The notes under the pieces were generated by a model. The model saw nothing but the letters and a program-made list of their open reading frames with translations. It had not been told where the DNA came from and searched no databases. This document shows, piece by piece, positions 1,031 to 53,706 of a stretch of DNA of 56,993 nucleotides; position 1 is the first letter of the stretch, and every line of letters begins with the position of its first letter. The translations under genes and the position numbers were made by a program. Origin of the DNA: a virus (lineage: Duplodnaviria; Caudoviricetes); the IMG/VR virus record IMGVR_UViG_3300030389_002895, positions 1-56,993 of that record. One strand, given 5' to 3'.

Positions 1031-2170
1031 TTATGCCGCTGTAGTTATCTTAGTCCAGGTTACTGGTGTTCCAGTATCTACTCTGTTCCATGCTATTATT
1101 ATTACACTTCCAACATTACTCGTCAATACTACTCCAGTAACATCATCTACTATCCCAGTGCCTGTTACTTCTGCTACTGTACCAACCGCTGATGTCGTTG
1201 CTACACCTGTTACATCATATCCTGAAACTGGTGTTATAGAACCAACTGCACTTGTTGTTGATAAACCTGTTACATTTACTGTACCAGTCATTTCTAACAC
1301 AACAGTGCCTACGGAACTTGTTGCTGCTACACCTGTAACATCTACTAATGTTATTGGTGCAACTATCGCTGTACCAACACCTGATGTCATTGCTACACCT
1401 GTAGTTCCTGTTGTAGAATCACCATCAAAATCAACTGTTCCTATTGAACCTGTAAGAGATAAACCAGTAGGTGTAATCTCCACACCTTGTGTAGTAGTAA
1501 CAGATCCTACAGATGAAGTGGTAGATACTCCTGTTACAGCAACAGTAACAGAAGTCGTTCCTACAGCAGTTCCTATAGCAGTTGATGCACTCACACCTGT
1601 TGGTATAACAGAATAGGCACCACCCCAAACTCTATTACCCCAAGTTCCTCGACCCCATCCTAATCCTATCTCTGCATCAATCGTAACAGAACCTACAGCA
1701 GTAGTAGAGGCAACTCCAGTAACTGATATAGTTGTATCATTTTGATCACCCCAAGCACCTTGTCCCCAAGACAAAACACCCCAAGAAGTAGCTGCAACAG
1801 TGTTTGCAGTCCAACCCATATTGGAATGATTAGTGCAATAATAATAAAGAGTTGGTGCAGAATCAGCTACAATAATAGTAGTTTTTGCACCAGGATTACC
1901 AGGCACTCCTGTAACAGTTACACCTGTAGTATATTCACTCCCCCCAGAATGTGTTCCATTAGCTGTAGTAGAGAACCTTAAAGGGTGGTTAGAATTACTA
2001 TTATCTGATTGATCAAAAACATAAGTTCCACCTTCAGCAAGATATAATGTTACATCTGCTGTAGCAGTAGAACCATCTATTGCATATTTATTACTAGAAC
2101 CAACATTATGATACGGATGATTAGAAGGATTACCACCAACAACAGTAATAGTTAATGTTCTAGTAGTCAC
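1031..2170 (-). CDS. Virion structural protein with N-terminal cupredoxin-like domain and VTG/WG repeats
   Basis: HPLRFS...YYYCTNHSNMG motif, then many VTGV repeats; GTG start with GGAG RBS. Confidence 0.7.
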   Translation of the reverse strand: MTTRTLTITVVGGNPSNHPYHNVGSSNKYAIDGSTATADVTLYLAEGGTYVFDQSDNSNSNHPLRFSTTANGTHSGGSEYTTGVTVTGVPGNPGAKTTIIVADSAPTLYYYCTNHSNMGWTANTVAATSWGVLSWGQGAWGDQNDTTISVTGVASTTAVGSVTIDAEIGLGWGRGTWGNRVWGGAYSVIPTGVSASTAIGTAVGTTSVTVAVTGVSTTSSVGSVTTTQGVEITPTGLSLTGSIGTVDFDGDSTTGTTGVAMTSGVGTAIVAPITLVDVTGVAATSSVGTVVLEMTGTVNVTGLSTTSAVGSITPVSGYDVTGVATTSAVGTVAEVTGTGIVDDVTGVVLTSNVGSVIIIAWNRVDTGTPVTWTKITTAA

Positions 2171-2186
2171 AGAACTAGTCTCCTAA

Positions 2187-2624
2187 CTAAGCTATTCTTA
2201 TAATAGCGTCTGAAGCATTAGCAGTAGGGAACTGTATAGTAAATGTGCCTGAAGTAGCTGTTTTATCTCCACCAAAATCTAATACTGCAACTGCTGGATC
2301 ACCAGTAGCTGAATCATTATAAATTAAAGCTCCTCTTGCTGTGAGAGATACACCTACAAATGATAAATCTGCAAAGTCTACTACAGCAGTATCAGTGCTT
2401 AAAACTGGTGTTACCGCAGCTAAAGCTTTGCCACCACTGGTGTAACCAGATGGTGAAGATACTTGGTTATCCGAAGTAAAAGAAGTTGTTGATTTACCTA
2501 AAGTAGCACTTGAAGTATACATTGATAATTTAAAAGTGTTTCCGCCAGGATTTGTAAAATTATGCACGCCTTTTAAAACATCTGTTTTAAAGACATTACA
2601 TACTGCACTTGTTGTTATTGCCAT
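2187..2624 (-). CDS. Conserved virion structural (tail) protein
   Basis: 145 aa beta-rich ORF with strong RBS in structural module. Confidence 0.65.
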   Translation of the reverse strand: MAITTSAVCNVFKTDVLKGVHNFTNPGGNTFKLSMYTSSATLGKSTTSFTSDNQVSSPSGYTSGGKALAAVTPVLSTDTAVVDFADLSFVGVSLTARGALIYNDSATGDPAVAVLDFGGDKTATSGTFTIQFPTANASDAIIRIA

Positions 2625-2639
2625 TTTTTCTCCTTTAAG

Positions 2640-8042: not shown

Positions 8043-8351
8043 TTAACACTTCCATCTTCTTCTCGCTTGTCTTAATCGAGAGTTAGGATTTTTAGCTGCT
8101 TTAGGAAATTGTTTCATTTGACCAGCACTTCTTGCACAAAATGACTTACGTCTTTTTGCAGCTTTACTTCCTGGTTTAACTTTTCCTGTAACAGCTGTTT
8201 GTAATTTAGATCCAGGGTTTTTTCTTCTGTAAGCAGCAACACCTGCTTTAGTCATACCTGCACCAGCTTTAGTTGGTCTAAAGTTTTTCTTGTTTCGGGG
8301 AGGCATGCCTCCCCTTTTTAAACCAATCAAATCTGCTGTGTAATTATCCAT
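8043..8351 (-). CDS. Basic conserved phage protein
   Basis: GMTKAGV..YRR.NPGSKL...RRKSFCARS...RWKC motif. Confidence 0.75.
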   Translation of the reverse strand: MDNYTADLIGLKRGGMPPRNKKNFRPTKAGAGMTKAGVAAYRRKNPGSKLQTAVTGKVKPGSKAAKRRKSFCARSAGQMKQFPKAAKNPNSRLRQARRRWKC

Positions 8352-12222: not shown

Positions 12223-12630
12223 TTAAAATAGTGCGAGGATGTCCTCGGGTTTTTTTATTGTTGCTATAATTTCATCATCGTTTAATATACGATGCTCTCC
12301 ATAGTTTGTTTTGAATCTTGCTCCTGCATACCTTCCATAAATTACAAACTGTCCTTCTTTGCACCATGGTCCTTCTGGAAACTTATCTTTGTCTTTATAA
12401 CAAAGCTCTCCCATCTTTACCACTAATCCAACTACAGTTGTAATCTCTTTTGTTTCTTGAGTCTTGTCTGTAAGTATAATACCGCCATCAGTTTTTGCTT
12501 TACCTGTCCATGGTCGAACAAGTATTCTATAGCCAACTGGGTCTGGCACTGTGTCTAAATATTTTTTTGTTTCTTCTTTACCTTGAGGGACTTTTACTTC
12601 TGATCTTCTTTTTAAGTTTAACATAGTCAT
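12223..12630 (-). CDS. groES: Co-chaperonin GroES (Cpn10) homologue
   Basis: P.GYRILV, T.GGIIL, V..GRYAG, RILNDDEI.A motifs. Confidence 0.88.
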   Translation of the reverse strand: MTMLNLKRRSEVKVPQGKEETKKYLDTVPDPVGYRILVRPWTGKAKTDGGIILTDKTQETKEITTVVGLVVKMGELCYKDKDKFPEGPWCKEGQFVIYGRYAGARFKTNYGEHRILNDDEIIATIKKPEDILALF

Positions 12631-26289: not shown

Positions 26290-27123
26290 TTAATCGTGAC
26301 AAAAACACACGTCATCAGACTTATCAAAATCAAATAAATCTAACTGGCTTTTACTTATATCCAACAGCGTTTTGTAATCTGCTCTATCGTGTCGAAAAAC
26401 AAAACCATCTTTAGATTTATCACCTAATTGTTTCTTTTCTTGGTCTATCCACCATTGTGCTTTCTCTGGATAGTTTTTCATTATATTCATAATGGTGTTC
26501 TTACCCTTCAAGAAACATAAATCACAATTACCAAGTGGTGTCTTACCTTTAATACCTGGTAATCGTAAATCAAAGTCACAGTTCTCCCAAAATTTTGCTA
26601 CATCTCTAACTGTTTTCTTTGCCCCATGTAGAGGTGCTTCACTCTCCCACCTCTCTTTATCTTTTGCTCTTAATAATCTAGCTACCCTATGTGGTTCATC
26701 ATAACGCAAACCAACATAGTTAAACCAGCTTTTGTGTCCTCTTGCCATCATAAATTCTTTCATAGGTCTTATCTTTAATTCTGATGTGCAATATCTTGTT
26801 ACTGGATTTGGTAAAAATTTTCTTTTGTTTATTAGTTTATCGTAAGGCTCCCCGTTTCGTGATGCGGAGTTATGGTTTACTTCTACAATCTTTTTCTCTT
26901 CATCCCACTCAATCCAATGGATTTTTACATCCCAGTTGACTGCACAATCACGTACAAAATCTAAAGTAGCATCCATTTCTTTACCGGTATTTGCAAAAAC
27001 TACATAGAGCTGCTCGGGTAGTTTGTCATCAAAATGGTCTAGTATTTCACGTAACATAAAGCCAGAGGTTCGCCCCCCTGAGAAACTTAATAGACCAGGT
27101 GTTCGTATGTTATATAAACTCAT
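26290..27123 (-). CDS. PAPS reductase-family (adenine nucleotide alpha hydrolase, PP-loop) protein
   Basis: SFSGGRTS, FANTGKE, RYCTSELK, VGLRYDE, GNCDLCFLKG and C-terminal CFCHD. Confidence 0.85.
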   Translation of the reverse strand: MSLYNIRTPGLLSFSGGRTSGFMLREILDHFDDKLPEQLYVVFANTGKEMDATLDFVRDCAVNWDVKIHWIEWDEEKKIVEVNHNSASRNGEPYDKLINKRKFLPNPVTRYCTSELKIRPMKEFMMARGHKSWFNYVGLRYDEPHRVARLLRAKDKERWESEAPLHGAKKTVRDVAKFWENCDFDLRLPGIKGKTPLGNCDLCFLKGKNTIMNIMKNYPEKAQWWIDQEKKQLGDKSKDGFVFRHDRADYKTLLDISKSQLDLFDFDKSDDVCFCHD

Positions 27124-37867: not shown

Positions 37868-38503
37868 TTATTTCTTTAACTTGGTTGTATATTTTTTACC
37901 TTGGTAAGTAAAAGTTTTCTTACCAGCTTTTCTAGCTTTAGCAAAAGAAGTTTCAAACGCTGACATTTTTTTCTTTTTCTTTCTATTTGATAAAGCAGGA
38001 ATACCCACTGTAGCTGCACCTGTATAAGCTGCACCAGTTAAAAACCCTTGTCCATAACCTGGTTTCTTTTTACGTGTAGCTGTTGGAATAGGTGTCTTTC
38101 TTCGTCTTGCTTCTAACGCTGCGCTAGCTTTTTTTGTAGCTGGTGTTGGAACTTTTCCTGTTGTAAAGTATTTAGCTGCTCTTTCTAAATCTTTTTTCAT
38201 AATCGGATCAGACATTTTAAATCCTGGTCTTACTTTTCCTAAAGCTTTTTTAAGTGCTACCATAGTAAGACCTCCAAGAGAAGCTTTCATCATTCTAGCT
38301 CCACCCTTAGAGTATCCTTTTGCCATCTTACCACCTCTGGCTCTCATCATACGAGCTCCGCCTTTCGAGTAGCCTTTTGCCATCTTGCCACCCATAGCTT
38401 TCATCATTCGTGCTCCGCCTTTAGAATAACCTTTAGCCATTTTACCACCTCTGGCTCTCATCATTCTAGCACCACCTTTACTATAACCTTTTGTTTTTCT
38501 CAT
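37868..38503 (-). CDS. Highly basic repeat protein (KGYSKGGARMMxAxGGKMA repeats)
   Basis: About four 19-aa repeats; C-terminal F...F..AR.AG..TF...GK.YTT motif. Confidence 0.8.
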   Translation of the reverse strand: MRKTKGYSKGGARMMRARGGKMAKGYSKGGARMMKAMGGKMAKGYSKGGARMMRARGGKMAKGYSKGGARMMKASLGGLTMVALKKALGKVRPGFKMSDPIMKKDLERAAKYFTTGKVPTPATKKASAALEARRRKTPIPTATRKKKPGYGQGFLTGAAYTGAATVGIPALSNRKKKKKMSAFETSFAKARKAGKKTFTYQGKKYTTKLKK

Positions 38504-42729: not shown

Positions 42730-45476
42730 TAGTTTTGTCCAGGTCTAGGAAAAGCTCTAGTGCCACCTAAATCAATATTTAAAACTCCAAATAGACTATC
42801 TGTGTCTGTATTTTCAAAAGTTGATTGAGTGTTAGGAATATCTTGTCCAGTGCGTTTCATCCATCTTCTTACATAATCTAAATGAGTAAGATTTTTAACT
42901 AAACTCATATCTCCTGCTTGTGCATTAAATTGTGTTGCTAATTGATTAGCTCTTGCATTCAAAGTCTGTTTCAAAGCTGTATAGTTTGCTCTAACTGTTT
43001 TACCTGCTTTTAAGAATTCAAAAATAGCTGTGGTTTGTGCAGCATTGTTAACGTCTGCAACTGTCAATCTATCTTCACCCTTATCAGCATTAGCCACAAT
43101 ATATTTCATACGATTTTGTATCAAACGTAATTCAGCTAATTGTCTTATTTTTTTATTTCTCAAACCTAAATCTTTAGTAGCAAGTACTTCTTTTCTAGCA
43201 TCACCTTTTATTAAATTAGATACTTGACCTTTATCCATAGCTGCTATAATTTCTTCATAATCATTCACAGCTTCTTCTTGATCTTTATTATATTGAGCTA
43301 ATAATCTGTTTCTTTCTCTAGTTACTTTATCCTTGTTTATAACTGCATCTTTATCCATACCTTCGTAGCCAGCGTTATTAATTAACATTTCTTGAATTTT
43401 AGCATCTACCATCGTATTGTTTTTAAGACTAGATATATCACCAGCATAAGCAGGACTACCATTATTTAATATTCCTGTCATACTACCCCACTCATCCATA
43501 AGATCAGTAAAGTTAGTAAAGAATCCTTCAATAGCACCACCAGTACCTAAAAACTTAGTATCTGCTGCTATAACTCGGTCAGCAAATTCAATTCCTAAGT
43601 TTAAAGCACTTAATTGACTCATAACTTTAGATGTTCTTTCAGGAGACAAAGGTTCTATAGCAGTACCACCCTCAGTTAAAGGCACCATTTTTTCACCAAC
43701 TCCTGGTTCACCAGTTTGTATTATTTCATATCTTTTACCATCTTTTCCTATGGCTATTTCTTTTCTTCTTTTACCTTCAAAGCCATTAGGATCATTTACC
43801 ATAATAAACTGTCTATTTTTATCATACGACATTTGTTTATTAGCTGCGTCTTTTCTAGCGTTTATTCTGTCTTGAAGATCGGCTATTGCTATTAAGTTGT
43901 TAAAATATTGTTGTCTGCTATTTACTTCTTCGTTAGCTATGTCAGTTTGTAAAGCTACATCATTTTGTAAAGCTGTTAGTTCTCCAGCATCAAGATACTT
44001 TTGTAAATCTTGTTCATACTGCAAGAAAGAAGCTCCGATAGCTTGTCTTTCAGCTCTTTGCTGTGCTTGTATAGCTGCTACATCATCTGCATATACTAAA
44101 CCAGCTTGACCCGCAATATCTAAGAACCCCATAAGTCCAGCTTCATTAGTTCTACCTGTCATCATAGCCATAGCCCATTTAAACATTGCTAAGTTCTTTT
44201 CTTCTGCAAAATCACCACCACCTAAAATATCTTTATATTTTTCTTGATATTGTTCAAAGGTCATCATTTTATCTCTTTTACCTTGTAAGTGTTCTTCATA
44301 TCTTTTCATTGCTGCCTTAACACCTTCAAAGTCTTTTTTCATAAATTCAGCTCTTACTGTAATACCTCCAATGTCAATACTTGCTGGTGGTAGAATAGCT
44401 GGATTGTTTTTATCTCCTGTAGGATTACCAGGATTTTTTAACAAATCAGTTGCAGTTTTATCTGCATCATTTACAGCAGCTTCTGGGTTTTTATTAATAT
44501 CAATCTCTGTTGTGCCTGGTGGTTTTTCTGTAGTCAATGCACTATCTGGATCTTCTACAGCTCCATCAATAGCTTGTTTATCAGTGACAGGAGGTTCACC
44601 TCCATCTCCTGGAGGTTGAGCTGCCTCTCCTGGAGTAATAGGCTCTTCTTGTTTTTCTTGTGCTGCTGCAGCTCTGTCTGTGGCTCTAGCTGTTTCCATC
44701 ATAGAATTTATTTCTTCTTCGTTATAAGGTTTGCCAATCTGTCTTTTTTGCTCAATATCTCTTAAAACTTCTTTTACTTTTGGACCTTCAACTTCTTGTA
44801 TTAAATTATTGAATTGGTTTGCATCATCTTCTAAACCTAAAGTTAGTTCAGGTGTCTTTGGCACTTCAAGTTTTGGTTTAGGTCCAAACATATCATAAAC
44901 TGTTGCTGTACCTCCTAATCCAAGACCTGCATATACTGCTCTATCAAAAGGTCTTTCTATTTTTCTGTCTAATTTTGTTACATCTAAACTTTCTTTTCCA
45001 CCTTTTCTGGTTGCATCTTTATCTAAACCTAATCTTTGAAATGATCTTCTAGTTGCTCTTCCTAAAGGAACAAGTCCAGCTAAACCAGCTAAGCCAAAAG
45101 CAGCATTTGCTGCTGTAAAATCTTCACCTTCTTGAAACAAAGGAGCAAATTGATAGCCAGTTCCAACAACGTCAGCACCTAATGCAACTGGAGTTGCAAT
45201 ATCTCTAGCCTTTCCAAGTACTGTTCTTTTTTCAAATTTGCGTGTTTTAGGTTGTCTTAATAGATTTTTACCTAATATTTTTGTTTGTCGTAATCCCTCA
45301 GCACCTGTTTGTTTTGCACCTTGAAATGTTCTATCAACAGTCTCTCCTGCTTGAGATAATTTTTCTTTTGCAGTAGGAGCTTTTTTTTCGTAATACTTTT
45401 TACCTTTCTTTGCGTATCTTTTAAGACCTAATTTACCTGCTTCAAATAAACCTTTTCCAAAAGTGTAAATACTCAT
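42729..45476 (-). CDS. Internal virion (ejection) protein
   Basis: 915 aa helical ORF, TAATG-coupled. Confidence 0.7.
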   Translation of the reverse strand: MSIYTFGKGLFEAGKLGLKRYAKKGKKYYEKKAPTAKEKLSQAGETVDRTFQGAKQTGAEGLRQTKILGKNLLRQPKTRKFEKRTVLGKARDIATPVALGADVVGTGYQFAPLFQEGEDFTAANAAFGLAGLAGLVPLGRATRRSFQRLGLDKDATRKGGKESLDVTKLDRKIERPFDRAVYAGLGLGGTATVYDMFGPKPKLEVPKTPELTLGLEDDANQFNNLIQEVEGPKVKEVLRDIEQKRQIGKPYNEEEINSMMETARATDRAAAAQEKQEEPITPGEAAQPPGDGGEPPVTDKQAIDGAVEDPDSALTTEKPPGTTEIDINKNPEAAVNDADKTATDLLKNPGNPTGDKNNPAILPPASIDIGGITVRAEFMKKDFEGVKAAMKRYEEHLQGKRDKMMTFEQYQEKYKDILGGGDFAEEKNLAMFKWAMAMMTGRTNEAGLMGFLDIAGQAGLVYADDVAAIQAQQRAERQAIGASFLQYEQDLQKYLDAGELTALQNDVALQTDIANEEVNSRQQYFNNLIAIADLQDRINARKDAANKQMSYDKNRQFIMVNDPNGFEGKRRKEIAIGKDGKRYEIIQTGEPGVGEKMVPLTEGGTAIEPLSPERTSKVMSQLSALNLGIEFADRVIAADTKFLGTGGAIEGFFTNFTDLMDEWGSMTGILNNGSPAYAGDISSLKNNTMVDAKIQEMLINNAGYEGMDKDAVINKDKVTRERNRLLAQYNKDQEEAVNDYEEIIAAMDKGQVSNLIKGDARKEVLATKDLGLRNKKIRQLAELRLIQNRMKYIVANADKGEDRLTVADVNNAAQTTAIFEFLKAGKTVRANYTALKQTLNARANQLATQFNAQAGDMSLVKNLTHLDYVRRWMKRTGQDIPNTQSTFENTDTDSLFGVLNIDLGGTRAFPRPGQN

Positions 45477-46381
45477 TAACCAAAACCTCCTACGCTAGTT
45501 CCTTTACCTCCAGGACCTACCATTTGATATGCACTATATGCTCCAACACCAGCACCTATAGCTTGTGCAAATGGATTAGTACCAGGACCCGTGGTTCTAG
45601 TTACTTGAGATGCAGCAGTTGGTAATGTTGTCATTATACCTTTTGCAAATTCTAATCTTTGGAATGGCTCATATTGTCTTGCAACCTCGGTAGCTCTTGC
45701 AGCTGCAAGTCCTCTATCAGCTAAAGCTCTTTGTGTAGCACCAGCTTGACCTAATTGAGCAATATCTCTTTGTTGCATCGCTTGTTGTTGGGCACCAAAA
45801 CCTTTTAATTGACCTGCTACACTTAATGCAGCATCGGTTTGAAATTGTTGTTGTTTTTGTGCAGCACCTAACGCTGACTTAAAACCAGATTCTTGTAATT
45901 GACCTATGACACCTAATCTTCTAGCTTCTTCTTCTGCTCTTTGCACTCCCTCTCTACCACCTCCAAAAGCACCAGCTTGCACCGCTTGTGCAGCCATTTG
46001 GTTTTGTTTTATTTTAGATTGTCTATTAACTTCATCAATAACATATCGTTGGTAAGGATTCATAAAAGCATCTATATCTGGCTGTTGAGCTGCTGTTAAA
46101 CTGCCACTTAAGACTGACGCTATACCAGCAGCAGTGGTTTGTTGACCTGTTCCTGTTTGTCCTGCCATTTTAAAAGCTTCTTGTTCTAAAGGTGCAGGAC
46201 CAGCTACCTGATATTCAGGAACCTCAATAGGTTGTGATGCTAATTTTATTGCTTCATCATATAAAGCAAGTTTTCTTCCCTCTATTGCAGGAGCTTCTCT
46301 TGTAATATTAGTTTGTGTGCCAGTTTGTGGGCCGCCACCGCCGCCACCGCCGCCACCGCCGCCGCCAAAAATGAAACTCAT
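45476..46381 (-). CDS. Internal virion / DNA pilot-like protein
   Basis: Gln/Ala-rich; FMNPYQ..VID and AGAFGG.R motifs; N-terminal poly-Gly. Confidence 0.75.
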   Translation of the reverse strand: MSFIFGGGGGGGGGGGGPQTGTQTNITREAPAIEGRKLALYDEAIKLASQPIEVPEYQVAGPAPLEQEAFKMAGQTGTGQQTTAAGIASVLSGSLTAAQQPDIDAFMNPYQRYVIDEVNRQSKIKQNQMAAQAVQAGAFGGGREGVQRAEEEARRLGVIGQLQESGFKSALGAAQKQQQFQTDAALSVAGQLKGFGAQQQAMQQRDIAQLGQAGATQRALADRGLAAARATEVARQYEPFQRLEFAKGIMTTLPTAASQVTRTTGPGTNPFAQAIGAGVGAYSAYQMVGPGGKGTSVGGFG

Positions 46382-46716
46382 ACTATTTTCCTTCTAAGTA
46401 ATACTGCTTGTTTTTTGTAATCAGGTAAAACTTTTTCCCAACCACATCTTCCTAAAATGTCAACATGACTAAACCACATGCTTTTAGCATATTCATAAAT
46501 TTCTTTTTCTATTTCAACCAAATCTTCCAAATCACCACCAGCTAAACCAATACGAAGAGTATTGTTAATTTTATTTGTTACAGCTGCACTTTTATTTTTT
46601 ATCCACAATTTAAATTCACCAGTTGCTAATCTATCCTCTATATCTTGTCTAGTAGCAAAATCTCCTATCTCAGCAGCAGGCTTTAAAACAGCCCATATTT
46701 CATCAGACATAACCAT
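46378..46716 (-). CDS. Putative GNAT-fold protein (P22 gp14/T7 gp13-like position)
   Basis: LAGG.L and I.GR.GW.KVL motifs; before ejection genes. Confidence 0.5.
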   Translation of the reverse strand: MVMSDEIWAVLKPAAEIGDFATRQDIEDRLATGEFKLWIKNKSAAVTNKINNTLRIGLAGGDLEDLVEIEKEIYEYAKSMWFSHVDILGRCGWEKVLPDYKKQAVLLRRKIV

Positions 46717-47522
46717 CAGCTAGTTAAGTCATAAATCCTTTTCAACTGATCTTGTTGATTATAAAAAAATTTTGCTCCTTTTTGTCTCATCTCCTTAAAA
46801 TCTTTAGGGTTGGCACCACTCATAATACCAGCACCTAAAACTGCATCTGCTCTACTTACAAATTCTCCGTCAGCTAATTGTGCTAACATGGTGTCCTCAT
46901 CTTTATCTGCAATATCAGTTGCGTCCTCAATATATCCCTTTGCTCTCATATAATTAGTTTTGTCTTTTTCATCATGATCTAATTTACTTGGTAAGTAAGT
47001 AACCCCACCAGTTTTAAATCCAGGAATACCTCCAACTATGCCACCAGTGCTCATTTGAGGCATATTATATACACTTGGATTATTTACCATAGTTTGTGCT
47101 GGACCTTCATAATTAAATCTATCACCTATACCTTGTACAGCTTGTCTTTGTTGATTGTACGCAGCTGCATATTCAGCTTCATCAAAAGGTGGTTTAAAAG
47201 GTTTTTGTTTTTGACCTCCCATTAATAATGGTGACGCCACTGCTGCTCCTAGACCAAGTTGTTGTGCTGTGCTTAAACCTTTTAGTGTAGGCATCAACCC
47301 TACATTTGCTGGTGCTACTCCTGCTGCAGTAGGTGGTCCTGCTACTGGTATACCACTAAGACCTCCACCTAAAGTAGAGGGCATAGCATAACCTCCTACA
47401 GTTCCTAAAGCACCACCTATCAAGGCGTTTTTAATCATGTCTCTGTTGGAGCCTCCAGAAGCTTTTGTGTATACTGCTCCTAATCCTGCTCCTATTAAAG
47501 CTGCCATCACTGGAAATGCCAT
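46716..47522 (-). CDS. Internal virion protein with D..LAQL.DGEFV motif
   Basis: Gly/Ala hydrophobic N-terminus; MSTGG/FKTGG; DTMLAQLADGEFVSRADAV. Confidence 0.7.
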   Translation of the reverse strand: MAFPVMAALIGAGLGAVYTKASGGSNRDMIKNALIGGALGTVGGYAMPSTLGGGLSGIPVAGPPTAAGVAPANVGLMPTLKGLSTAQQLGLGAAVASPLLMGGQKQKPFKPPFDEAEYAAAYNQQRQAVQGIGDRFNYEGPAQTMVNNPSVYNMPQMSTGGIVGGIPGFKTGGVTYLPSKLDHDEKDKTNYMRAKGYIEDATDIADKDEDTMLAQLADGEFVSRADAVLGAGIMSGANPKDFKEMRQKGAKFFYNQQDQLKRIYDLTS

Positions 47523-47551
47523 TCTTGTCTCCTTAATATTATACTTATAGT

Positions 47552-48334
47552 CTAACTCTTTTTCTCTTGTCTATCAAGACCCACGGGTATCATTTCATCA
47601 ATCAACCTACCAGTATACTGATACTCACCAACATGCGTAATATATTCTGTTATAAGAGCATAACATTTACCACCAATATCACGCCATAATTTAGAAAAAG
47701 CAAAGTCTTCTCCATAATATCTTTTATCTTTTTCATCATAATGCGTGTCAAAAAAATTATACAAGTTAGGCTTTACAGTCATTTTTCCATCTACCATACT
47801 CTCTTGGTGTATAATTTTGTTAGGATAAAATTTTATAAGTTTGTCAAACACTTCTTTCTTTAACAAAAGACAGCCAGTAGGAGCATAATTCAATTCAATC
47901 ATCTCATTAGTAAATGAGACATTGTCTTCATTATCTTTTATCTTAACAGGAAATTTATTACCGCTTGTATGTTTTTGTAATTTTGTCATATTAGGTATGT
48001 CTTCATATTTCTTATATACCTTATCCCAATTAATCACCTTCATGGGGTAAGGTATGCTACATACCTCAACATCTTTATCAATCATTTTAAAAATAGAATT
48101 AGGATAAAATAATATGTCACTATCAATAAACAAAAGATGCGTATAATCATCAGATAAGAAATGAGACACTAATGTGTTTCTACCTTGTGTTACCAAAGAA
48201 CTTTTCATCATATCTACAGTAATGTGAATATTTTTATGTAAACACTCAGATTGAAATTTTAACATAGACTGCATGTAATGTATGGAAACATCACTGTGAA
48301 CTGGTGTTGCTACAAATAATTTAATTTCTTTCAT
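47552..48334 (-). CDS. GT-A fold glycosyltransferase
   Basis: VATP, SLV..GRN, HLLFIDSDI (DxD), TG.LL and GEDFAFS motifs. Confidence 0.85.
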   Translation of the reverse strand: MKEIKLFVATPVHSDVSIHYMQSMLKFQSECLHKNIHITVDMMKSSLVTQGRNTLVSHFLSDDYTHLLFIDSDILFYPNSIFKMIDKDVEVCSIPYPMKVINWDKVYKKYEDIPNMTKLQKHTSGNKFPVKIKDNEDNVSFTNEMIELNYAPTGCLLLKKEVFDKLIKFYPNKIIHQESMVDGKMTVKPNLYNFFDTHYDEKDKRYYGEDFAFSKLWRDIGGKCYALITEYITHVGEYQYTGRLIDEMIPVGLDRQEKKS

Positions 48335-49250
48335 TCAACGCACCTTGTAAAAAATTTGTCCACTCTATCTTTTTCTTTTCCCAACTATAAAATTTTTTAA
48401 CAAAGTTTTGTTGCATTTGTAAGTGTTCAAACACCTCTGGCTCGTGTATCGTGTTTACTGCTTGTCGTATTGCAGATGCAAATTTACTAGCAAGTCTTTT
48501 CGTATCTTTCTCATAGGTAACGTATACAGGAAACTCAGAGCAAGTTTCATACAAAGCACCAAAGTTTGTAACTATACAAAATAATCCAGCAGCCATTGAC
48601 TCAAGAGCTGCATTACAACTTGTCTCCTCCCATGTGCTAGGATAAGCAAACATATGATAACGATAAATATATTTTTGTATAAAAGAATGTTCTTTATAAC
48701 CTATGTAAGTTACGTTTTCTAATTTTCTTGCTTGTTCATACAATGGTTCATATTGACTGTCGTTTGCTTTTTCAAATTCTTCTCCGTATATTTTACAACT
48801 ACTAAACACATCTACATGCACGTTACAGTCTTTTAATAAACTCATAGCACCTAATAAAACATTAAGACCCCTCCATGGTGTGACATGAAAAAGCATACGA
48901 ACCATATTACCTTCTTTAAAAGGTGTTAATGTAGGAAAGTTGTTTACACCATTTTTTATTACATGACATCTTTCAGTGGGTAGATCAAATCTATATCTAT
49001 ACTTTTCATAATTCCAATGGCTGTTAAAAACATACCAATCAAATTTGTCATGGTTAGTTTTATCTTCAAACCATGGATATATATTAGGTTGGTCATGACT
49101 ATTTTTTTGCCATAATATATTTATTTTATCTTTACTTAATTTTACTTTACCAGGTATTGATGTGCATATTTGGAAGTTATCTAAAAGTTTATCATTCACA
49201 TAATGAGACAAAAATCTATGTTGTATTTCTGTTCCTCCTTGCGGAATCAT
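48321..49250 (-). CDS. GT-B fold glycosyltransferase (GT4 / Glycos_transf_1-like)
   Basis: GGTE, TPWRGL and YPSTWEETSC..ALE (E-x7-E) motifs. Confidence 0.88.
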   Translation of the reverse strand: MIPQGGTEIQHRFLSHYVNDKLLDNFQICTSIPGKVKLSKDKINILWQKNSHDQPNIYPWFEDKTNHDKFDWYVFNSHWNYEKYRYRFDLPTERCHVIKNGVNNFPTLTPFKEGNMVRMLFHVTPWRGLNVLLGAMSLLKDCNVHVDVFSSCKIYGEEFEKANDSQYEPLYEQARKLENVTYIGYKEHSFIQKYIYRYHMFAYPSTWEETSCNAALESMAAGLFCIVTNFGALYETCSEFPVYVTYEKDTKRLASKFASAIRQAVNTIHEPEVFEHLQMQQNFVKKFYSWEKKKIEWTNFLQGALNERN

Positions 49251-49564
49251 CTCCCATACTCCAACAGTAACTCTTGACCTTGTTTTATTTTTTTAATTGT
49301 CATAACTTTGTATACAAGGTAATCATCCCAGTCTAAATCAATAAACAAACGACAGTTTGGTTCGTCACTATGATTTAAAAAACCTCCCATAGGAGTTCTA
49401 ACATACCCGTGTATAATTGGTATTTTTATATGACTCATACCTAAATCATATTTTTTAGGCAAATCAGATTTAGCAAAGACACCATGTCCATGAGTAGAAC
49501 TAACCCCAATCATTAACTCCTCTGGCAAAGGATTGTAGTAAAACCTGTCGTATTTAATTTTCAT
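49247..49564 (-). CDS. SET-domain protein (putative lysine methyltransferase)
   Basis: S.HG.GVFA, GFLNHSDEPNC and I..GQEL..EY SET signature motifs. Confidence 0.9.
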   Translation of the reverse strand: MKIKYDRFYYNPLPEELMIGVSSTHGHGVFAKSDLPKKYDLGMSHIKIPIIHGYVRTPMGGFLNHSDEPNCRLFIDLDWDDYLVYKVMTIKKIKQGQELLLEYGR

Positions 49565-49754
49565 CTTTGGTTTTACTAATCATAGATAAAGCTTCTTTTG
49601 GTACTATAATATTTACATCGCACGCTATATCTTCTTGTTTAGTATCTGTATTTGGATTATCTACATCGTGCTGAGCATCTTCTTTAGTAGCATACCTTAA
49701 ATTAGTTTTTTTATTTCTATAAGTTTCTTGTGAAGTGCATCGTATTGTTTTCAT
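49554..49754 (-). CDS. Hypothetical protein
   Basis: 66 aa ORF, DV..PNT.T..EDI motif. Confidence 0.65.
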   Translation of the reverse strand: MKTIRCTSQETYRNKKTNLRYATKEDAQHDVDNPNTDTKQEDIACDVNIIVPKEALSMISKTKDEN

Positions 49755-49792
49755 AAAAACAATATCCTATAAATATTAGAAAAAATCAAGTA

Positions 49793-50359
49793 TTAACTAA
49801 ACCAACAAACTATACTGTATCTAGTGCCAGATAAAACAGGTTCTACAGAATGAGGGTACATAAAATTACTAGGAAACATAATTAAATCTCCTGTGTGCAA
49901 ATTTACTTTACTATATGGTTGTTGATTATGTGGGTAATAAAAAATTATTTCTCCACCTTTGTAGTTTTCGTTTAAATTAATTATAAAAGATAATTGTCTA
50001 TTTTCTTGATGAAAAGAATCAGTATGTCTTTTGTAAAAATTACCTGTTTCATATTTTAATAAATTAATTGATTCGAATTTTAATTCTTGATGTAAACTGG
50101 GAAATATTTTTTGATATTCTTGTATAGATTTACAACAAGTATTAAATATAAGCTTATGATATAAAGCATCATGTTCATTATCAGGGTTTAAAGGAACAGT
50201 AGAAACATTTCTATACTTTGTATCAACAAAATTAGTATTATCTTTTAACATTGTAGCTTTATAACTAGGACTTAAATCTATATGTTCACATAGGTTTTTA
50301 CAAACTTTTTTATCTAAAGCCTGATCTATTTTAAAAATAGCAGAACTTATTCTATCCAT
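49793..50359 (-). CDS. 2OG-Fe(II) oxygenase (prolyl 4-hydroxylase-like)
   Basis: Y..HTD, LN..Y.GGE, FPSNFMYPH.V.PV..G.RYS. Confidence 0.92.
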   Translation of the reverse strand: MDRISSAIFKIDQALDKKVCKNLCEHIDLSPSYKATMLKDNTNFVDTKYRNVSTVPLNPDNEHDALYHKLIFNTCCKSIQEYQKIFPSLHQELKFESINLLKYETGNFYKRHTDSFHQENRQLSFIINLNENYKGGEIIFYYPHNQQPYSKVNLHTGDLIMFPSNFMYPHSVEPVLSGTRYSIVCWFS

Positions 50360-50702
50360 TCTCTTGAGAACGATCTATTAAAGCATAACTTACTAAACCT
50401 TGTATTTTACTACTGCCTGTGGCTGCTTGAACAGTTATGGCATCACCAGCTTCTAAATTTAAACCTTGAGGAGAAGCATTAACTTGTGACTTAGCCGCTA
50501 TGTCATCTCTAAAAAATTCATACTCAGTGCTAGAATCAGATGAGTCAACAAAATTCATGTTTACTAAAATAGCTGATGACGCATCATTGTTAGCTAAATA
50601 AATACTTTTAATTATAACTGTTCCATTAGTAGGACATGTAAATACTGTAGTTTTGCTTGTGTCGGTTTGTTTAAAACCTTGGTTTTTATATTGTATTGTC
50701 AT
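50352..50702 (-). CDS. Small tail/structural protein
   Basis: YKN, T.IIKSI..AN and L.LE.GD.I motifs. Confidence 0.65.
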   Translation of the reverse strand: MTIQYKNQGFKQTDTSKTTVFTCPTNGTVIIKSIYLANNDASSAILVNMNFVDSSDSSTEYEFFRDDIAAKSQVNASPQGLNLEAGDAITVQAATGSSKIQGLVSYALIDRSQENG

Positions 50703-50863
50703 GATAAAAAATACTCAAAAGCTTGTTGATCATTTTTGATTTCTTGTTGATAACTAAAATTTAATTTTTGTATAATTTGAGTTAAAGCTAAATTAATTAA
50801 TCTTTGGTTTTCAATATTATATTCTTCTTTTGGTTCCGGAATAAATGTATTAATTTTAGCCAA
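50699..50863 (-). CDS. 54-aa protein (MAKINTFIPEPKEEY...), not in ORF track
   Basis: Manual translation from TTG; coupled at both ends. Confidence 0.65.
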   Translation of the reverse strand: MAKINTFIPEPKEEYNIENQRLINLALTQIIQKLNFSYQQEIKNDQQAFEYFLS

Positions 50864-51137
50864 TTTGTTTCTTTCTTTTTAATGCTACTTTACCAGCTTT
50901 GGCAATTCTTACTACTTCTGCTTTACCCATAACTTTCGCACGTTGTTCCATAACAGTCAATATTTGTATTTTTCTAGCGTAGGGTTTTGATATTTTTTTT
51001 ACTTTTGCAACAGTTGCTCTTGCATCAGCTGGTGTTGCAAATTTAATACGCACTGTATCTTTAGGGTTTTCGTCTGTATACAACCTACGACCTGTGCCTT
51101 TAGGTTTTTTACCTCTTCCTTTTTTTGGATCTGCCAC
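50856..51137 (-). CDS. Basic conserved phage protein
   Basis: DP..G.GKKPKG.GRRLYTDENPKDTV.IKFAT motif. Confidence 0.75.
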   Translation of the reverse strand: MADPKKGRGKKPKGTGRRLYTDENPKDTVRIKFATPADARATVAKVKKISKPYARKIQILTVMEQRAKVMGKAEVVRIAKAGKVALKRKKQIG

Positions 51138-51237
51138 TTATGACTCCTTTTAATGTTTTAGCTTGACCTGCATGTAATTTAGAAGCTTTTTTTAACCCTT
51201 TTATTACTTTTTTAATTTTGTTTTTACTTTTATTCAT
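51109..51237 (-). CDS. 42-aa Lys-rich peptide (…KKVIKGLKKASKLHAGQAK…), not in ORF track
   Basis: Manual translation; fills the intergenic gap. Confidence 0.6.
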   Translation of the reverse strand: MNKSKNKIKKVIKGLKKASKLHAGQAKTLKGVISGRSKKRKR

Positions 51238-51548
51238 TTACGTTTGCCTTTCTTTTTTTCGGGTGCTTTTCTTAATACTTTATATATTATATCAGGAGGA
51301 GCCCATAAATAACAGTATTCTTTTATATTTAAAATTTTAAAGGATTTTTGTTTATGTAGACCCCATTTAAAATCTTCTGCATTTTGTTTAATCATATCAA
51401 AATAAAATTTATATTGATCAGGCCATTCGTTTTTTGTGAACTTCCATATTTTTTTTGCGTTCAATACGATTGCATATGGGTTTGATGTATGATCGCTTTT
51501 CCATATTTTTTCATTATCGATGCTTACAATGTTTTTAACGTCTACCAT
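51234..51548 (-). CDS. Hypothetical protein
   Basis: Probable start MVDVKNI at 51548. Confidence 0.55.
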   Translation of the reverse strand: MVDVKNIVSIDNEKIWKSDHTSNPYAIVLNAKKIWKFTKNEWPDQYKFYFDMIKQNAEDFKWGLHKQKSFKILNIKEYCYLWAPPDIIYKVLRKAPEKKKGKRK

Positions 51549-53706
51549 CTGGCTGCACATCTGCTTTAAAAGTTCCATACCTCCAGTTTTCATCAGTAGT
51601 AATATTTTCTATTTTTAAACTAGCTGCTCGACCTCTTGCTCTTGTATCTACTTTTTGTGTTGATGAAGATATAGTAAAAGGACCCAAGCTACTACTAGAT
51701 TCTGTATCACTAGGGAAATCTTTTAAATTAATTGTTACTTTAGCATTACCTGCTAAAGCTCTGAAGTCTGGTATAAATCTTCTTATTTTCATAAAAAATT
51801 CACCACGTATACCGCCTCCAGCTTCTACTTCAAAATCACCACTTTCAATACTACCTATTATCGCAGTGGTAGTGCCATCAGTTTTTACCTGATTAGTTCC
51901 TTTTTCATGTGCATATAAAGTTGTAGCTCCATTAGTAGATGTGGCTCCTTGTATTATAGGAAAACTAGGTATACTAGTGGTGCTATATTCTGTTGCATAA
52001 GGATTATCATATATTGTTTTGTCATAGTAAGTTGTTCTTGACAATGAGCCAATAGTCCACAAACCCTCTGCGTAATTATAACTAACTACCCTATCTATTT
52101 GTGTAGATCCTGCTTTAGGGTAAAACCAATTTATTTCACTAAACAATGAATTATATCCAGCATACACTACATCTGCTGCATCAAAGTTTAATCCTAAATC
52201 ATCTTCATCTTGTGTAGTAAAAACAAAATCTTCAACTTGACAAGATATTTTCTTTACTGTTCCATCAAATAAATAAAAGCCACCTGCTTGACCCATCCAA
52301 TAAACCACTCCATTAACTGCCACTATAGCGTGTTGAGATATTAAACCACAATTAGCTCCCACTTGCTGTATACCAAACGTAAAAGGTGGACCAACAAATT
52401 GCATAGTGTATGCAGAAGTATCTGTTAAAATTAAAATAAAACTACCTGCATTCACAGCACCAACTATTTTTGTACCACTATCTATCCTAAAAGTACCTGC
52501 CGTATTAGTAGATGTAGGTGTATAATCCTCAAAGTTTTCTTGATCTGCAAAACGTATAAACATTTTATCTTGAGAACTTGTTCCTATAGTGGTTTCAGTG
52601 CCTAAATGAATTAAATGTCTATCTCTGTCAGAGACTACAGTCATCACACTTTGTATTGGTGCGTTGTTTATGACTGTAGCTCTTGTTGACAGAGCCGAGG
52701 CACTGCTCGGGTTCCATTGAAAAGTCTTATTGTTTTTTACAGTCGCAACTAATATTTGCCCAAAATTATCTAATGACCAGTTCCCTGGTTCTAATGTTAC
52801 CTCACCAGTAGGTGAAGCATCACCCCATCCGGTAAAGCTAGAAGCCTCTTGCACCACAGCACCATCACTGTGCGCTGATCTAGTTGATCCAGAAGCTCCT
52901 CTTGCAATTCCTGTAACAGTGCTACCTGCTACACCAGTATAAGTTATTAATTCTTCTCCTACTTTTAATGTGCCACCACTACTACTAAAACCAGACACAG
53001 AAGTTAAAGTTATTGCAGTACCTGAGCCGCCCGTTCCATTTGCATCATCTAATAATGCACCATTTAATGTAGTGCTAGTTATTGAAGGGTTTGTACCACC
53101 ATATAAGCCAGTTCCAAAACCATAACCTGTAACTTGTACAGCGTCACCCACTTTAAAATATGGAGATAAAGTCACACTACCTCCAGCACTAAAACCAGAA
53201 CCTGATTCAACTTTACCTGCTGTTACAGTAAAAGTGTCAGAAGTTCTCGTTATAACCTCAAAAGTATTTTGTGTAAAATCTGCACTAACAAAACCAGTGC
53301 TGCCGCCTGGTAAGGTTACACTAGAAAATAAAAATAAATCTCCTACCTCTAATCCATGAGCTGCTTTATTGACAGTGACAGTTGCTGAGTTATTAGTGGT
53401 GGTTAAAGTACAAGATGTTATGTTTGTATCTAAAGGTGATATATCATAAAAAGCACCATCATGATGTAAAAATAAACCCTTATTTGTTCCTATTACTATG
53501 TACCTTTTACCTAATAAGTCACTCCAAATGTGCATGTCTCTACCTACACCAACTAACGTGCTAGAGGTGGTTTGTTCCCATCCACCTATTTTTTCTGGAA
53601 AACCATAACGAAATCTTACATTATCACAGTCAACCCATTTACCTTGTGCTCCTGTAGGTGTAACTTGTTTATTTATACCGCCAATAATCTTGACTTCACT
53701 AAGCAT
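51535..53706 (-). CDS. Tail stabilisation/nozzle protein (P22 gp10-like)
   Basis: NVRFR.G.PEKIGGW start, beta-propeller-like repeats, C-terminal R.RGR...PDGRR. Confidence 0.75.
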   Translation of the reverse strand: MLSEVKIIGGINKQVTPTGAQGKWVDCDNVRFRYGFPEKIGGWEQTTSSTLVGVGRDMHIWSDLLGKRYIVIGTNKGLFLHHDGAFYDISPLDTNITSCTLTTTNNSATVTVNKAAHGLEVGDLFLFSSVTLPGGSTGFVSADFTQNTFEVITRTSDTFTVTAGKVESGSGFSAGGSVTLSPYFKVGDAVQVTGYGFGTGLYGGTNPSITSTTLNGALLDDANGTGGSGTAITLTSVSGFSSSGGTLKVGEELITYTGVAGSTVTGIARGASGSTRSAHSDGAVVQEASSFTGWGDASPTGEVTLEPGNWSLDNFGQILVATVKNNKTFQWNPSSASALSTRATVINNAPIQSVMTVVSDRDRHLIHLGTETTIGTSSQDKMFIRFADQENFEDYTPTSTNTAGTFRIDSGTKIVGAVNAGSFILILTDTSAYTMQFVGPPFTFGIQQVGANCGLISQHAIVAVNGVVYWMGQAGGFYLFDGTVKKISCQVEDFVFTTQDEDDLGLNFDAADVVYAGYNSLFSEINWFYPKAGSTQIDRVVSYNYAEGLWTIGSLSRTTYYDKTIYDNPYATEYSTTSIPSFPIIQGATSTNGATTLYAHEKGTNQVKTDGTTTAIIGSIESGDFEVEAGGGIRGEFFMKIRRFIPDFRALAGNAKVTINLKDFPSDTESSSSLGPFTISSSTQKVDTRARGRAASLKIENITTDENWRYGTFKADVQPDGRR

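Follow-up and report, generated by a model that had tools for sequence, protein, structure and literature searches.

A conserved glycosyltransferase pair and a variable island of candidate protein-modifying enzymes in the virion gene module of an HTVC023P-type pelagiphage

Two giant viruses, Paramecium bursaria chlorella virus 1 (PBCV-1) and Mimivirus, possess enzymes of protein modification, which include vSET, a prolyl 4-hydroxylase (P4H) and A64R in the former and R655/R699 together with a lysyl-hydroxylase/glycosyltransferase in the latter; vSET targets the histone H3 of the host. In Methanosarcina a SET protein methylates MC1-alpha, a chromatin-like protein. In mycobacteriophages, glycosyltransferases (GTs) whose genes adjoin structural ones are reported to attach glycans to proteins of the capsid and the tail (Freeman et al. 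2023, Cell Host Microbe). The present analysis concerns a block of enzyme genes in the IMG/VR virus record IMGVR_UViG_3300030389_002895. The whole stretch analysed, referred to below as the window, has 56,993 bases and represents the entire, circularly permuted genome of an HTVC023P-type pelagiphage, a phage type that is very abundant in the ocean. The block encodes a GT-B and a GT-A glycosyltransferase, a stand-alone SET protein (mini-SET), a 2-oxoglutarate (2OG)-Fe(II) oxygenase and a short GNAT-fold protein, g112.

The locus resembles that of the mycobacteriophages in that phage GT genes adjoin structural genes; here, however, it is a GT-B and GT-A pair in a podovirus of SAR11, with a neighbouring island of 2OG, SET and tailoring enzymes. 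With the giant viruses it has in common the same kinds of enzymes in one viral genome, a minimal SET protein (vSET has 119 residues) and a GT-A fold to which A64R and R699 are neighbours. Those viruses infect eukaryotes, whereas the present host is a bacterium, the genes are clustered in a virion operon, and the SET protein falls in a clade composed of viral contigs only. The prokaryotic SET proteins of Methanosarcina and the effector LegAS4 are likewise small, with intact S-adenosylmethionine (SAM) and catalytic-tyrosine motifs, and a basic, DNA-associated substrate is a precedent for targets rich in lysine and arginine (K/R-rich); unlike them, the SET protein described here belongs to a phage-specific clade. 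For this phage group, GT and 2OG genes have already been published as auxiliary metabolic genes: the HTVC023P-type annotation lists glycosyltransferases and eight families of 2OG-Fe(II) oxygenases under that name (PMC9599517). That the GT pair keeps one position within the virion operon is not discussed in the relevant passages of that paper, the terms 'SET domain', 'methyltransferase' and 'lysine' do not occur in its main text, and PF00856, 'SET domain' and 'acetyltransferase' do not occur in two of its supplement files. In a literature search no paper turned up that deals with phage SET proteins, with a connection between these and K/R-rich proteins, with the gene for the GNAT-fold protein or with the constant location of the two GT genes in the virion operon.

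The block consists of two layers. The GT pair, g66, g268 and the GNAT-fold gene form a backbone, and SET and 2OG are accessory cargo inserted upstream of GT-B (Table 1). The first-pass annotation had proposed five enzyme genes within positions 46378..50359, inside the virion module, as one protein-modification toolkit. All five genes are real and lie between tail and ejection-like genes, the individual calls being of unequal strength (Pfam, PHROG, models, coordinates); the same span also holds g66 and the Gly-zipper gene g268, which had gone unmentioned. The idea of a single co-inherited toolkit had to be given up: the GT pair and the GNAT-fold gene belong to the backbone, and SET occurs in only 2 of 82 GT loci, being found elsewhere in replication, packaging and other contexts. 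The 2OG gene is present without SET in most GT loci.

The backbone was traced in related GT loci, the best 80 of at least 591 viral contigs that encode GT-A in an IMG/VR scan with the GT-A family. The order in relatives is g723 - g54 - g116 - [variable] - g66 - GT-B - GT-A - g268 - (g112-like) - g301. GT-B abuts GT-A in 72 of the 75 loci with room upstream. Of 73 loci, 53 have a g66 homologue at most 700 nt upstream of GT-B, and of 49 loci, 41 have g268 downstream of GT-A; all these loci come from one phage group, and the counts do not represent independent events. Across 69 loci, g116 and GT-B are separated by anything from 120 to 2448 nt, a gap that holds at least 10 cargo families, with SET in 2 of the 69 and a 2OG of the window type in 6. 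Other cargo includes 2OG-FeII_Oxy_5, further Oxy_3 members, DUF6445, JmjC_2-like proteins, a carbamoyltransferase and the sugar O-methyltransferase RMNT_CmcI. In place of SET and 2OG, one locus carries a NodU/CmcH-type carbamoyltransferase (L049:3504-5006; Carbam_trans_C 7.2e-53) and another RMNT_CmcI (L054:4445-5266; 1.8e-15). The sub-lineage of the window accounts for 15 of the 18 loci found with the window SET, and wherever the contig reaches it shows the order g723 - g119 - g93_KR - g54 - g116 - 2OG - g66 - SET - GT-B - GT-A. From g116 through g1103, which encodes a protein of 1103 residues, neighbouring genes overlap by 1-14 nt or are 29-38 nt apart according to their coordinates; the overlaps are 8 nt for 2OG with g116, 11 nt for SET with g66 and 4 nt for SET with GT-B. 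Promoter- or terminator-like sites in this stretch were no commoner than in shuffled sequence.

Expression data exist for one relative. In the infection time course of HTVC027P (PMC12753301, Table S3), gp80 (GT-B), gp81 (GT-A), gp73 (2OG), gp75, gp78, gp82 and gp85 are placed in the 'Late' cluster, which that paper ties to morphogenesis and lysis, and the DNA polymerase in the 'Middle' cluster. The identity is 52% between gp80 and GT-B of the window and 44% between gp81 and GT-A; gp75 is the homologue of g723, gp78 that of g116, and gp82 and the structural protein gp85 come after the GT pair.

The GT-B protein was recognised by PF00534 with 47.2 bits against a cut-off of 26.4, and an E-x7-E stretch, a motif of GT4-like GT-B enzymes, can be read in its translation. 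PADLOC gave three weak GajA matches for it (E 9.4e-4 to 5.6e-3). For GT-A no Pfam match reached its cut-off, and the assignment rests on PHROG, on an invariant D71-S-D73 among 30 sequences and on the AlphaFold2 (AF2) model (predicted local distance difference test score, pLDDT, 82), which was given a GT-A fold by two aligners, VIA-align and Foldseek. Its best structural match is A197 of the crenarchaeal Sulfolobus turreted icosahedral virus (STIV; PDB 2c0n), also a small stand-alone viral GT-A enzyme, with Z 17.0, a root-mean-square deviation (rmsd) of 2.5 over 163 aligned residues, 23% identity and a Foldseek E of 1e-7. A197 has 191 residues compared with 260 here; we know of no established acceptor for it. 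The top tier of fold neighbours further contains LH3/ColGalT1 (Z 15.6), Mnn9 (15.1, rmsd 5.3) and Mimivirus R699 (14.8), with polysaccharide synthases two Z units below that tier (Z up to 12.6); altogether 104 chains were found at Z of at least 8 and 105 Foldseek matches at E up to 1e-3, among them PBCV-1 A64R (1e-4). Membership of GT-A in GT62, the Anp1-Mnn9 mannosyltransferases, was considered and rejected: Anp1 (PF03452) scored 23.4 bits against a cut-off of 28.8 and covered residues 33-93 only, and Mnn9 is merely a fold neighbour. In sequence-profile searches of solved structures, GT-A matched only GlfT2 at E 0.5 and not A197, and GT-B matched nothing meaningful. Relatives of GT-A numbered 2535 at E up to 1e-3.

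None of GT-A, GT-B, SET, 2OG and g112 has a 19-residue window that reaches a Kyte-Doolittle (KD) value of 1.6, and no flippase, polymerase or sugar-nucleotide synthesis gene could be assigned in Pfam and PHROG scans of all window open reading frames (ORFs) of at least 80 codons. The GT genes were found within the structural operon by gene order, and their HTVC027P orthologues are late, both of which bear on virion glycosylation. The late expression, the fixed place between tail and ejection genes, the lack of strongly hydrophobic windows and the lack of a recognisable gene for sugar-nucleotide synthesis, for a flippase or for a polymerase all point to an acceptor that is soluble and produced late, and glycosylation of virion proteins by the GT pair is the reading we favour. 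The glycan-tailoring cargo of relatives fits a decorated glycan. g268 has an N-terminal hydrophobic stretch (19-residue KD value 1.65) and is probably a membrane-active internal or ejection protein. Two tail-fibre-like proteins (window 1034-2182 and 2190-2639, minus strand) contain Ser/Thr-rich tracts, with 15-16 of 30 residues being Ser or Thr; it is tempting to speculate that these are O-glycosylation sites and the proteins candidate acceptors.

The 2OG oxygenase scored 72.1 bits with PF13640 (cut-off 27), and its HxD...H iron triad and 2OG-binding arginine (H112, D114, H170, R180) are invariant in 17 sequences. Its sequence matches in the PDB are a PKHD-type hydroxylase (3.4e-6), PHD2/EGLN1 (about 1e-4) and the bacterial hydroxylase 4iw3 (8.9e-4), which we take to be the EF-Tu hydroxylase. 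Membership in TET/JBP was rejected: this family was not among the five Pfam matches at E up to 0.01, and the nearest nucleic-acid family, Oxygenase-NA, gave 16.5 bits vs 26.2. The sole strong PADLOC match was to a generic '2OG' model (6.5e-22). Of the 33 loci with at least 6.9 kb of upstream flank, 26 have a gene of this 2OG family in their tail/GT region, in most cases just upstream of g723. The first-pass annotation had invoked hydroxylation of prolines or lysines followed by glycosylation. In favour of this route, GT-A is a fold neighbour of the enzymes of collagen hydroxylysine glycosylation, the GT domain of LH3/PLOD3 and COLGALT1 (Foldseek 3e-6 to 5e-6), and a 2OG hydroxylase is encoded nearby; in contrast to the collagen system, 2OG is of the P4H/PKHD rather than the PLOD type, 2OG and GT are separate proteins, and there are no G-X-Y repeats. 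A search of the phage proteome for collagen-like G-X-Y or (PAPK)n-like hydroxylase substrates gave no convincing repeats, only a poly-Gly tract and one 12-residue stretch.

The mini-SET protein matched PF00856 with 35.1 bits (cut-off 22.4), and its family profile matched the SET domains of MLL (1.9e-11) and PBCV-1 vSET (6.9e-8). A match to LegAS4 was also obtained (7.9e-4). Residues G28, N64, H65, N70, E98 and Y103 are invariant in 17 sequences; among 60, this still holds for G28, N64, E98 and Y103, with H65 and N70 conserved in at least 90%. These residues belong to what are known as the SAM-pocket and catalytic motifs GxG, NH(S/C)xxPN and E...Y with the catalytic tyrosine, and they align with NHS...PN and EL..Y of MLL. 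The family consists of stand-alone proteins of about 95-135 residues, with 2032 representatives at E up to 1e-3 and 685 at E up to 1e-10 (profile search, representatives at 50% identity). Its members occur in at least 599 viral contigs, and its Atlas clusters are 93-100% viral; for the cellular homologues, 257 of 260 matched stretches were in genome_contigs. In a FastTree analysis of 151 rows, based on 114 columns, with many forks unresolved and vSET outside the tree, the window SET was placed in a viral-only clade of 51 rows with Shimodaira-Hasegawa (SH)-like support of 99, at a path distance of about 1 from other viral rows and at least 2.7 from cellular rows. A recent host origin of the gene was rejected on these grounds. 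Among the cellular homologues, the Marinimicrobia gene overlaps metK and is followed by ahcY (L191:3974-6913, L188), and a 146-residue Pelagibacteraceae protein is encoded between alanine dehydrogenase/aminotransferase III and a DAO+GCV_T dehydrogenase, or by a Rieske oxygenase, a class I methyltransferase and an M24 peptidase (L238:3998-4438, L259, L261:4004-4444). These contexts are neighbourhoods of methyl-group metabolism.

The neighbourhood of SET was examined in 79 loci, each extending 6 kb to both sides, which fall into 20 SET sequence clusters. A 2OG of the window subfamily lies within three genes of SET in 11 of 12 cases, in 4 of the 20 clusters, and the two genes overlap in 7 loci; the hidden Markov model (HMM) for this count was built from SET-linked sequences and shows the linkage of that subfamily only. 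A phage of another type, with a serine recombinase, has the order PDDEXK nuclease - SET - 2OG, with SET and 2OG overlapping by 20 nt and a C5 DNA methylase opposite (L135:5579-6871, L148:1388-2680); GT and structural genes are absent from this context.

The first-pass annotation had also counted more than ten K/R-rich proteins in the genome and suggested that the toolkit acts on basic packaged proteins or on the virion surface. The count was borne out: 13 minus-strand ORFs have at least 25% K+R, one of them a nested shadow ORF, leaving 12 real proteins. The basic proteins of the genome include a DUF6321 protein (8043-8351). By gene neighbourhood only, g93_KR is a candidate substrate of SET. 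Its homologues abut SET in 8 of the 79 SET loci, in both orders; all 15 SET-bearing HTVC023P-type loci carry g93_KR, and seven loci have it in the absence of a local SET. A K/R-rich ORF of any kind abuts SET in 13 of 79 loci, and with L017 included such adjacency is seen in 6 of the 20 SET clusters and in at least three gene orders. The density of K/R-rich same-strand ORFs was 0.57 per kb within 500 nt of SET and about 0.05 per kb beyond 1 kb, a roughly tenfold difference obtained in a post hoc test, designed after the examples had been seen, that counts ORFs rather than called genes in loci that are not independent. Elsewhere in the window (37868-38503, minus strand) a protein of 211 residues with 28% K+R contains four tandem repeats that include KGYSKGG, and proteins with similar KGY/KGG repeats were seen in K/R blocks adjoining SET in L116 and L017.

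For g112 there was no Pfam, PHROG or NCBIfam match. Its AF2 model (pLDDT 79) is built on 7 sequences only; all 50 rows listed by VIA-align were of the GNAT superfamily, with Z up to 10.1 and 103-112 of the 112 residues aligned, as were nearly all Foldseek rows (best E 3.6e-3). The protein is shorter than the stand-alone GNAT chains listed, which have from 130 to about 200 residues, and the closest Atlas clusters that bear a name, at 0.86-0.88, are those of viral GNATs, to be taken as a lead only. An HMM of g112 matches 22 of 82 related loci, directly downstream of the g268 homologue wherever the latter is detected, the distant matches being stop-to-stop frames of about 140-157 codons. HTVC023P gp80, a protein of 152 residues encoded in the same position, was rejected as a homologue (no BLASTP similarity, E 6.5). 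Of the earlier label 'GNAT-like', the predicted fold therefore stands, and a catalytic role is only putative, with no family match and the motif not placed.

The coordinates of the block and of its neighbours are collected in Table 1. Nearly all window genes are on the minus strand, and in the phage collection a 5-kb query matched only the DNA of HTVC023P and HTVC027P, two Pelagibacter phages, with a quarter of its length aligning at 68-69% identity; both have their gene order in common with the window. These two phages, which can be cultured on HTCC1062, possess the GT pair and a 2OG gene and lack SET. The modules, read on the minus strand and wrapping around the ends, follow the order replication, small and large terminase, portal, holin, GroES, capsid, endolysin, adaptors, tail fibres, a LamG protein, a DUF7483 tail fibre (3.9e-96), the virion structural protein g723 and the enzyme block, after which come g301, with its weak match to a DNA ejection protein, two large unannotated proteins and again the replication genes. 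The GroES co-chaperonin gene (window 12223-12630, minus strand; Cpn10 5e-12) is situated between the portal/holin and capsid genes, as reported for HTVC023P and HTVC027P. A PAPS-reductase-like gene (window 26290-27123, minus strand; phrog_424 4.4e-46, PF01507 3.3e-6) was found near the small terminase gene.

Table 1. Positions in the window of the enzyme block and of flanking genes
Feature	Positions	Strand	Evidence
g301, ejection-protein-like, follows block	45476..46381	-	phrog_4287 'DNA ejection protein', 2.4e-7
g112, short GNAT-fold protein, 112 aa	46378..46716	-	AF2 model, VIA-align, Foldseek
g268, Gly-zipper protein, backbone gene	46716..47522	-	Gly-zipper_YMGG 0.0013, below cut-off
GT-A glycosyltransferase, 260 aa, backbone gene	47552..48334	-	phrog_1574 4.6e-32; predicted GT-A fold; DxD
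GT-B glycosyltransferase (GT4-like), 309 aa, backbone gene	48321..49250	-	PF00534 2.3e-12; PF13692 1.2e-11; phrog_2170 6.4e-25
Mini-SET lysine methyltransferase candidate, 105 aa, accessory gene	49247..49564	-	PF00856 1.9e-8
g66, small conserved ORF preceding GT-B	49554..49754	-	conserved position; no Pfam, PHROG or NCBIfam match
2OG-Fe(II) oxygenase, P4H/PKHD type, 188 aa, accessory gene in variable island	49793..50359	-	PF13640 7.8e-20
g116 and g54, backbone genes, tail-side border of variable island	50352..50863	-	occur in related loci
g93_KR, 93-aa K/R-rich protein, candidate SET substrate by gene neighbourhood only	50856..51137	-	K+R 30%
42-aa K/R-rich ORF paired with g93_KR	51109..51237	-	K+R 40%; homologous 47-aa ORF precedes g93_KR and SET in L119
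g723, virion structural (tail) protein upstream of block	51535..53706	-	phrog_3287, 3e-82

The explanation we put forward, tentatively and with a confidence somewhat short of even, is that late proteins of the phage itself are modified by soluble enzymes, arranged in two layers, while these proteins are still unassembled in the cytoplasm of the host. In the first layer, found in all HTVC023P-type phages, GT-B and GT-A, translationally coupled with tail and ejection genes, would add a short glycan to at least one virion protein from host nucleotide sugars, and the island enzymes beside them, which vary among relatives, may tailor the acceptor or the glycan by means of 2OG hydroxylases, a carbamoyltransferase or a CmcI-type sugar O-methyltransferase. 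In the second layer, proper to the sub-lineage of the window, the mini-SET would act on lysines of g93_KR and related phage proteins, which are small and very basic, and methylate them, and the P4H-type 2OG would hydroxylate a protein side chain, either on the substrates of SET or on tail proteins. For g112, whose gene lies among those for ejection, acylation of a protein encoded nearby is conceivable, as is a non-catalytic role. What the data show are the families of the enzymes, their intact catalytic motifs, a gene order that is conserved, the late transcription of orthologues in a single relative and the recurring neighbourhoods; the substrate at every step, as well as the virion identity of the modified proteins, we infer.

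Several observations weigh against this explanation. The lack of SET in 80 of the 82 related GT loci counts against its single-toolkit form. In other phages SET follows nrdAB (P-SSM7), stands beside baseplate genes (P-RSM6) or between helicase and polymerase genes (L019), or is near terminase, portal, primase and PDDEXK genes; because these contexts vary, SET is not tied to the GT pair. A first test of SET neighbours found 23 K/R-rich proteins among 390 (5.9%) compared with a background of 5.0%, that is, no enrichment, a count distorted because antisense shadow ORFs had replaced K/R-rich genes in the greedy longest-ORF call. The K/R-rich genes of AT-rich phages were indeed seen to carry long antisense ORFs that win longest-ORF gene calling (L119 4993-5328 and 6303-6941, minus strand). 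No isolate record has both genes: g93_KR homologues occur in 9 records and SET homologues in 8 others. The recurrent adjacency and the roughly tenfold density speak for a link between SET and basic proteins, the null first test and the disjoint isolate records against it; as we read these sequences, the linkage appears to be real but non-obligate. As for the GNAT-fold protein, the acetyl-CoA-binding motif A of GNATs is R/Q-x-x-G-x-G/A, and it could not be placed by eye in the g112 alignment. The predicted fold neighbours of GT-A are viral or protein-glycosylating enzymes, and the fold does not fix the acceptor. No virion proteomics was found for the phage group, and the term 'mass spectrometry' is absent from the text of the isolation preprint.

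GT4 and GT2-like enzymes are also usual in the synthesis of lipopolysaccharide (LPS) and exopolysaccharide (EPS), and the GT pair with its tailoring enzymes might instead remodel the host envelope, changing, late in infection, a glycan or glycoprotein on the SAR11 surface and so perhaps blocking superinfection or the sticking of progeny to debris, with SET, 2OG and the GNAT-fold gene as unrelated cargo. GT-B does show weak NCBIfam matches, far below the cut-offs, to EpsE (7.4e-7) and an LPS GlcNAc-transferase (2e-5), the PHROG class of both GT-B and 2OG is 'moron, auxiliary metabolic gene and host takeover', and the carbamoyl- and O-methyl-transferases in the islands of relatives would suit the tailoring of a polysaccharide equally well. 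Phage GTs have been interpreted as modifiers of LPS or the cell wall in parts of the literature (PMC9599517, PMC12801897), and such published readings of these genes as host-surface or DNA modifiers count against the explanation we prefer. The GT pair is, however, a fixed and late-transcribed backbone element in the virion operon of a lytic phage, lacks strongly hydrophobic windows and is unaccompanied by any flippase, polymerase or sugar-nucleotide synthesis gene in the window scans, and the best fold neighbours of GT-A are protein-glycosylating or viral; envelope remodelling is for us an unlikely account, though still a live rival. DNA hypermodification of the kind seen in T4 or base-J-like systems, with 2OG hydroxylating a base to which the GTs would then attach a sugar, had been named in the first-pass annotation as the alternative. 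It draws some support from distant GT-A homologues (30-34% identity) in the replication/recombination regions of Caulobacter phage Cr30 and a spring-water phage, which also tell against a virion role, and from the thymidine hypermodification and the putative hydroxymethylcytosine (hmC) glucosyltransferase near the polymerase described for some HTVC023P-type clades (PMC9599517). In the window, however, the Pfam and PHROG scans gave no thymidylate-synthase-like hydroxymethylase, TET/JBP, deoxynucleoside monophosphate (dNMP) kinase or aG/PT-PPlase, 2OG is of the P4H/PKHD type, the GT orthologues of HTVC027P are late when its polymerase is middle, and the GT pair is conserved where the window-type 2OG is missing. 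With late expression and no hydroxymethyl-pyrimidine pathway in these scans, DNA glycosylation ranks last among the rivals and is very improbable.

It may also be that the block has no common pathway, the g116-GT-B gap being a permissive insertion site and SET and 2OG acting on host proteins (translation factors, ribosomal or nucleoid proteins) in the course of takeover. The wide range of island lengths and cargo families and the diverse contexts of SET are compatible with this, and mini-SET homologues on host-clade chromosomes of Pelagibacteraceae and Marinimicrobia mean that cellular targets for such enzymes exist; the solved relatives of 2OG, moreover, include prolyl hydroxylases of cellular proteins such as 4iw3. 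Yet the island cargo is strongly skewed to oxygenases and group-transferases rather than being random genes, SET recurs beside K/R-rich phage proteins and the same 2OG subfamily, the window SET stands in its viral-only clade far from cellular SETs, and the HTVC027P 2OG orthologue is expressed late for a takeover function. We hold this account, too, to be doubtful, though it deserves to be kept in mind.

Returning to modification of the phage's own late proteins, a broader picture may be sketched, which we think unlikely to hold in full: many marine phages would package small and extremely basic, probably DNA-associated proteins that are marked before packaging by a phage-only mini-SET, often together with a P4H hydroxylase, and in HTVC023P-type phages, the most abundant group of oceanic pelagiphages, this would be joined to an obligatory glycosylation of virion proteins, the whole amounting to a virus-encoded post-translational code on the proteins of the phage. 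The 'chromatin-like code' on packaged basic proteins suggested in the first-pass annotation was judged to be speculation.

If the virions are glycosylated and the basic proteins methylated, this would bear on adsorption and host range, and on how stable and sticky the particles are and how they decay in seawater. The GT and 2OG genes would then be genes of morphogenesis rather than of metabolism, and counts of 'auxiliary metabolic genes' would change. The mini-SET family is large and almost wholly viral, and the g93_KR family offers it a defined candidate substrate that is directly testable.

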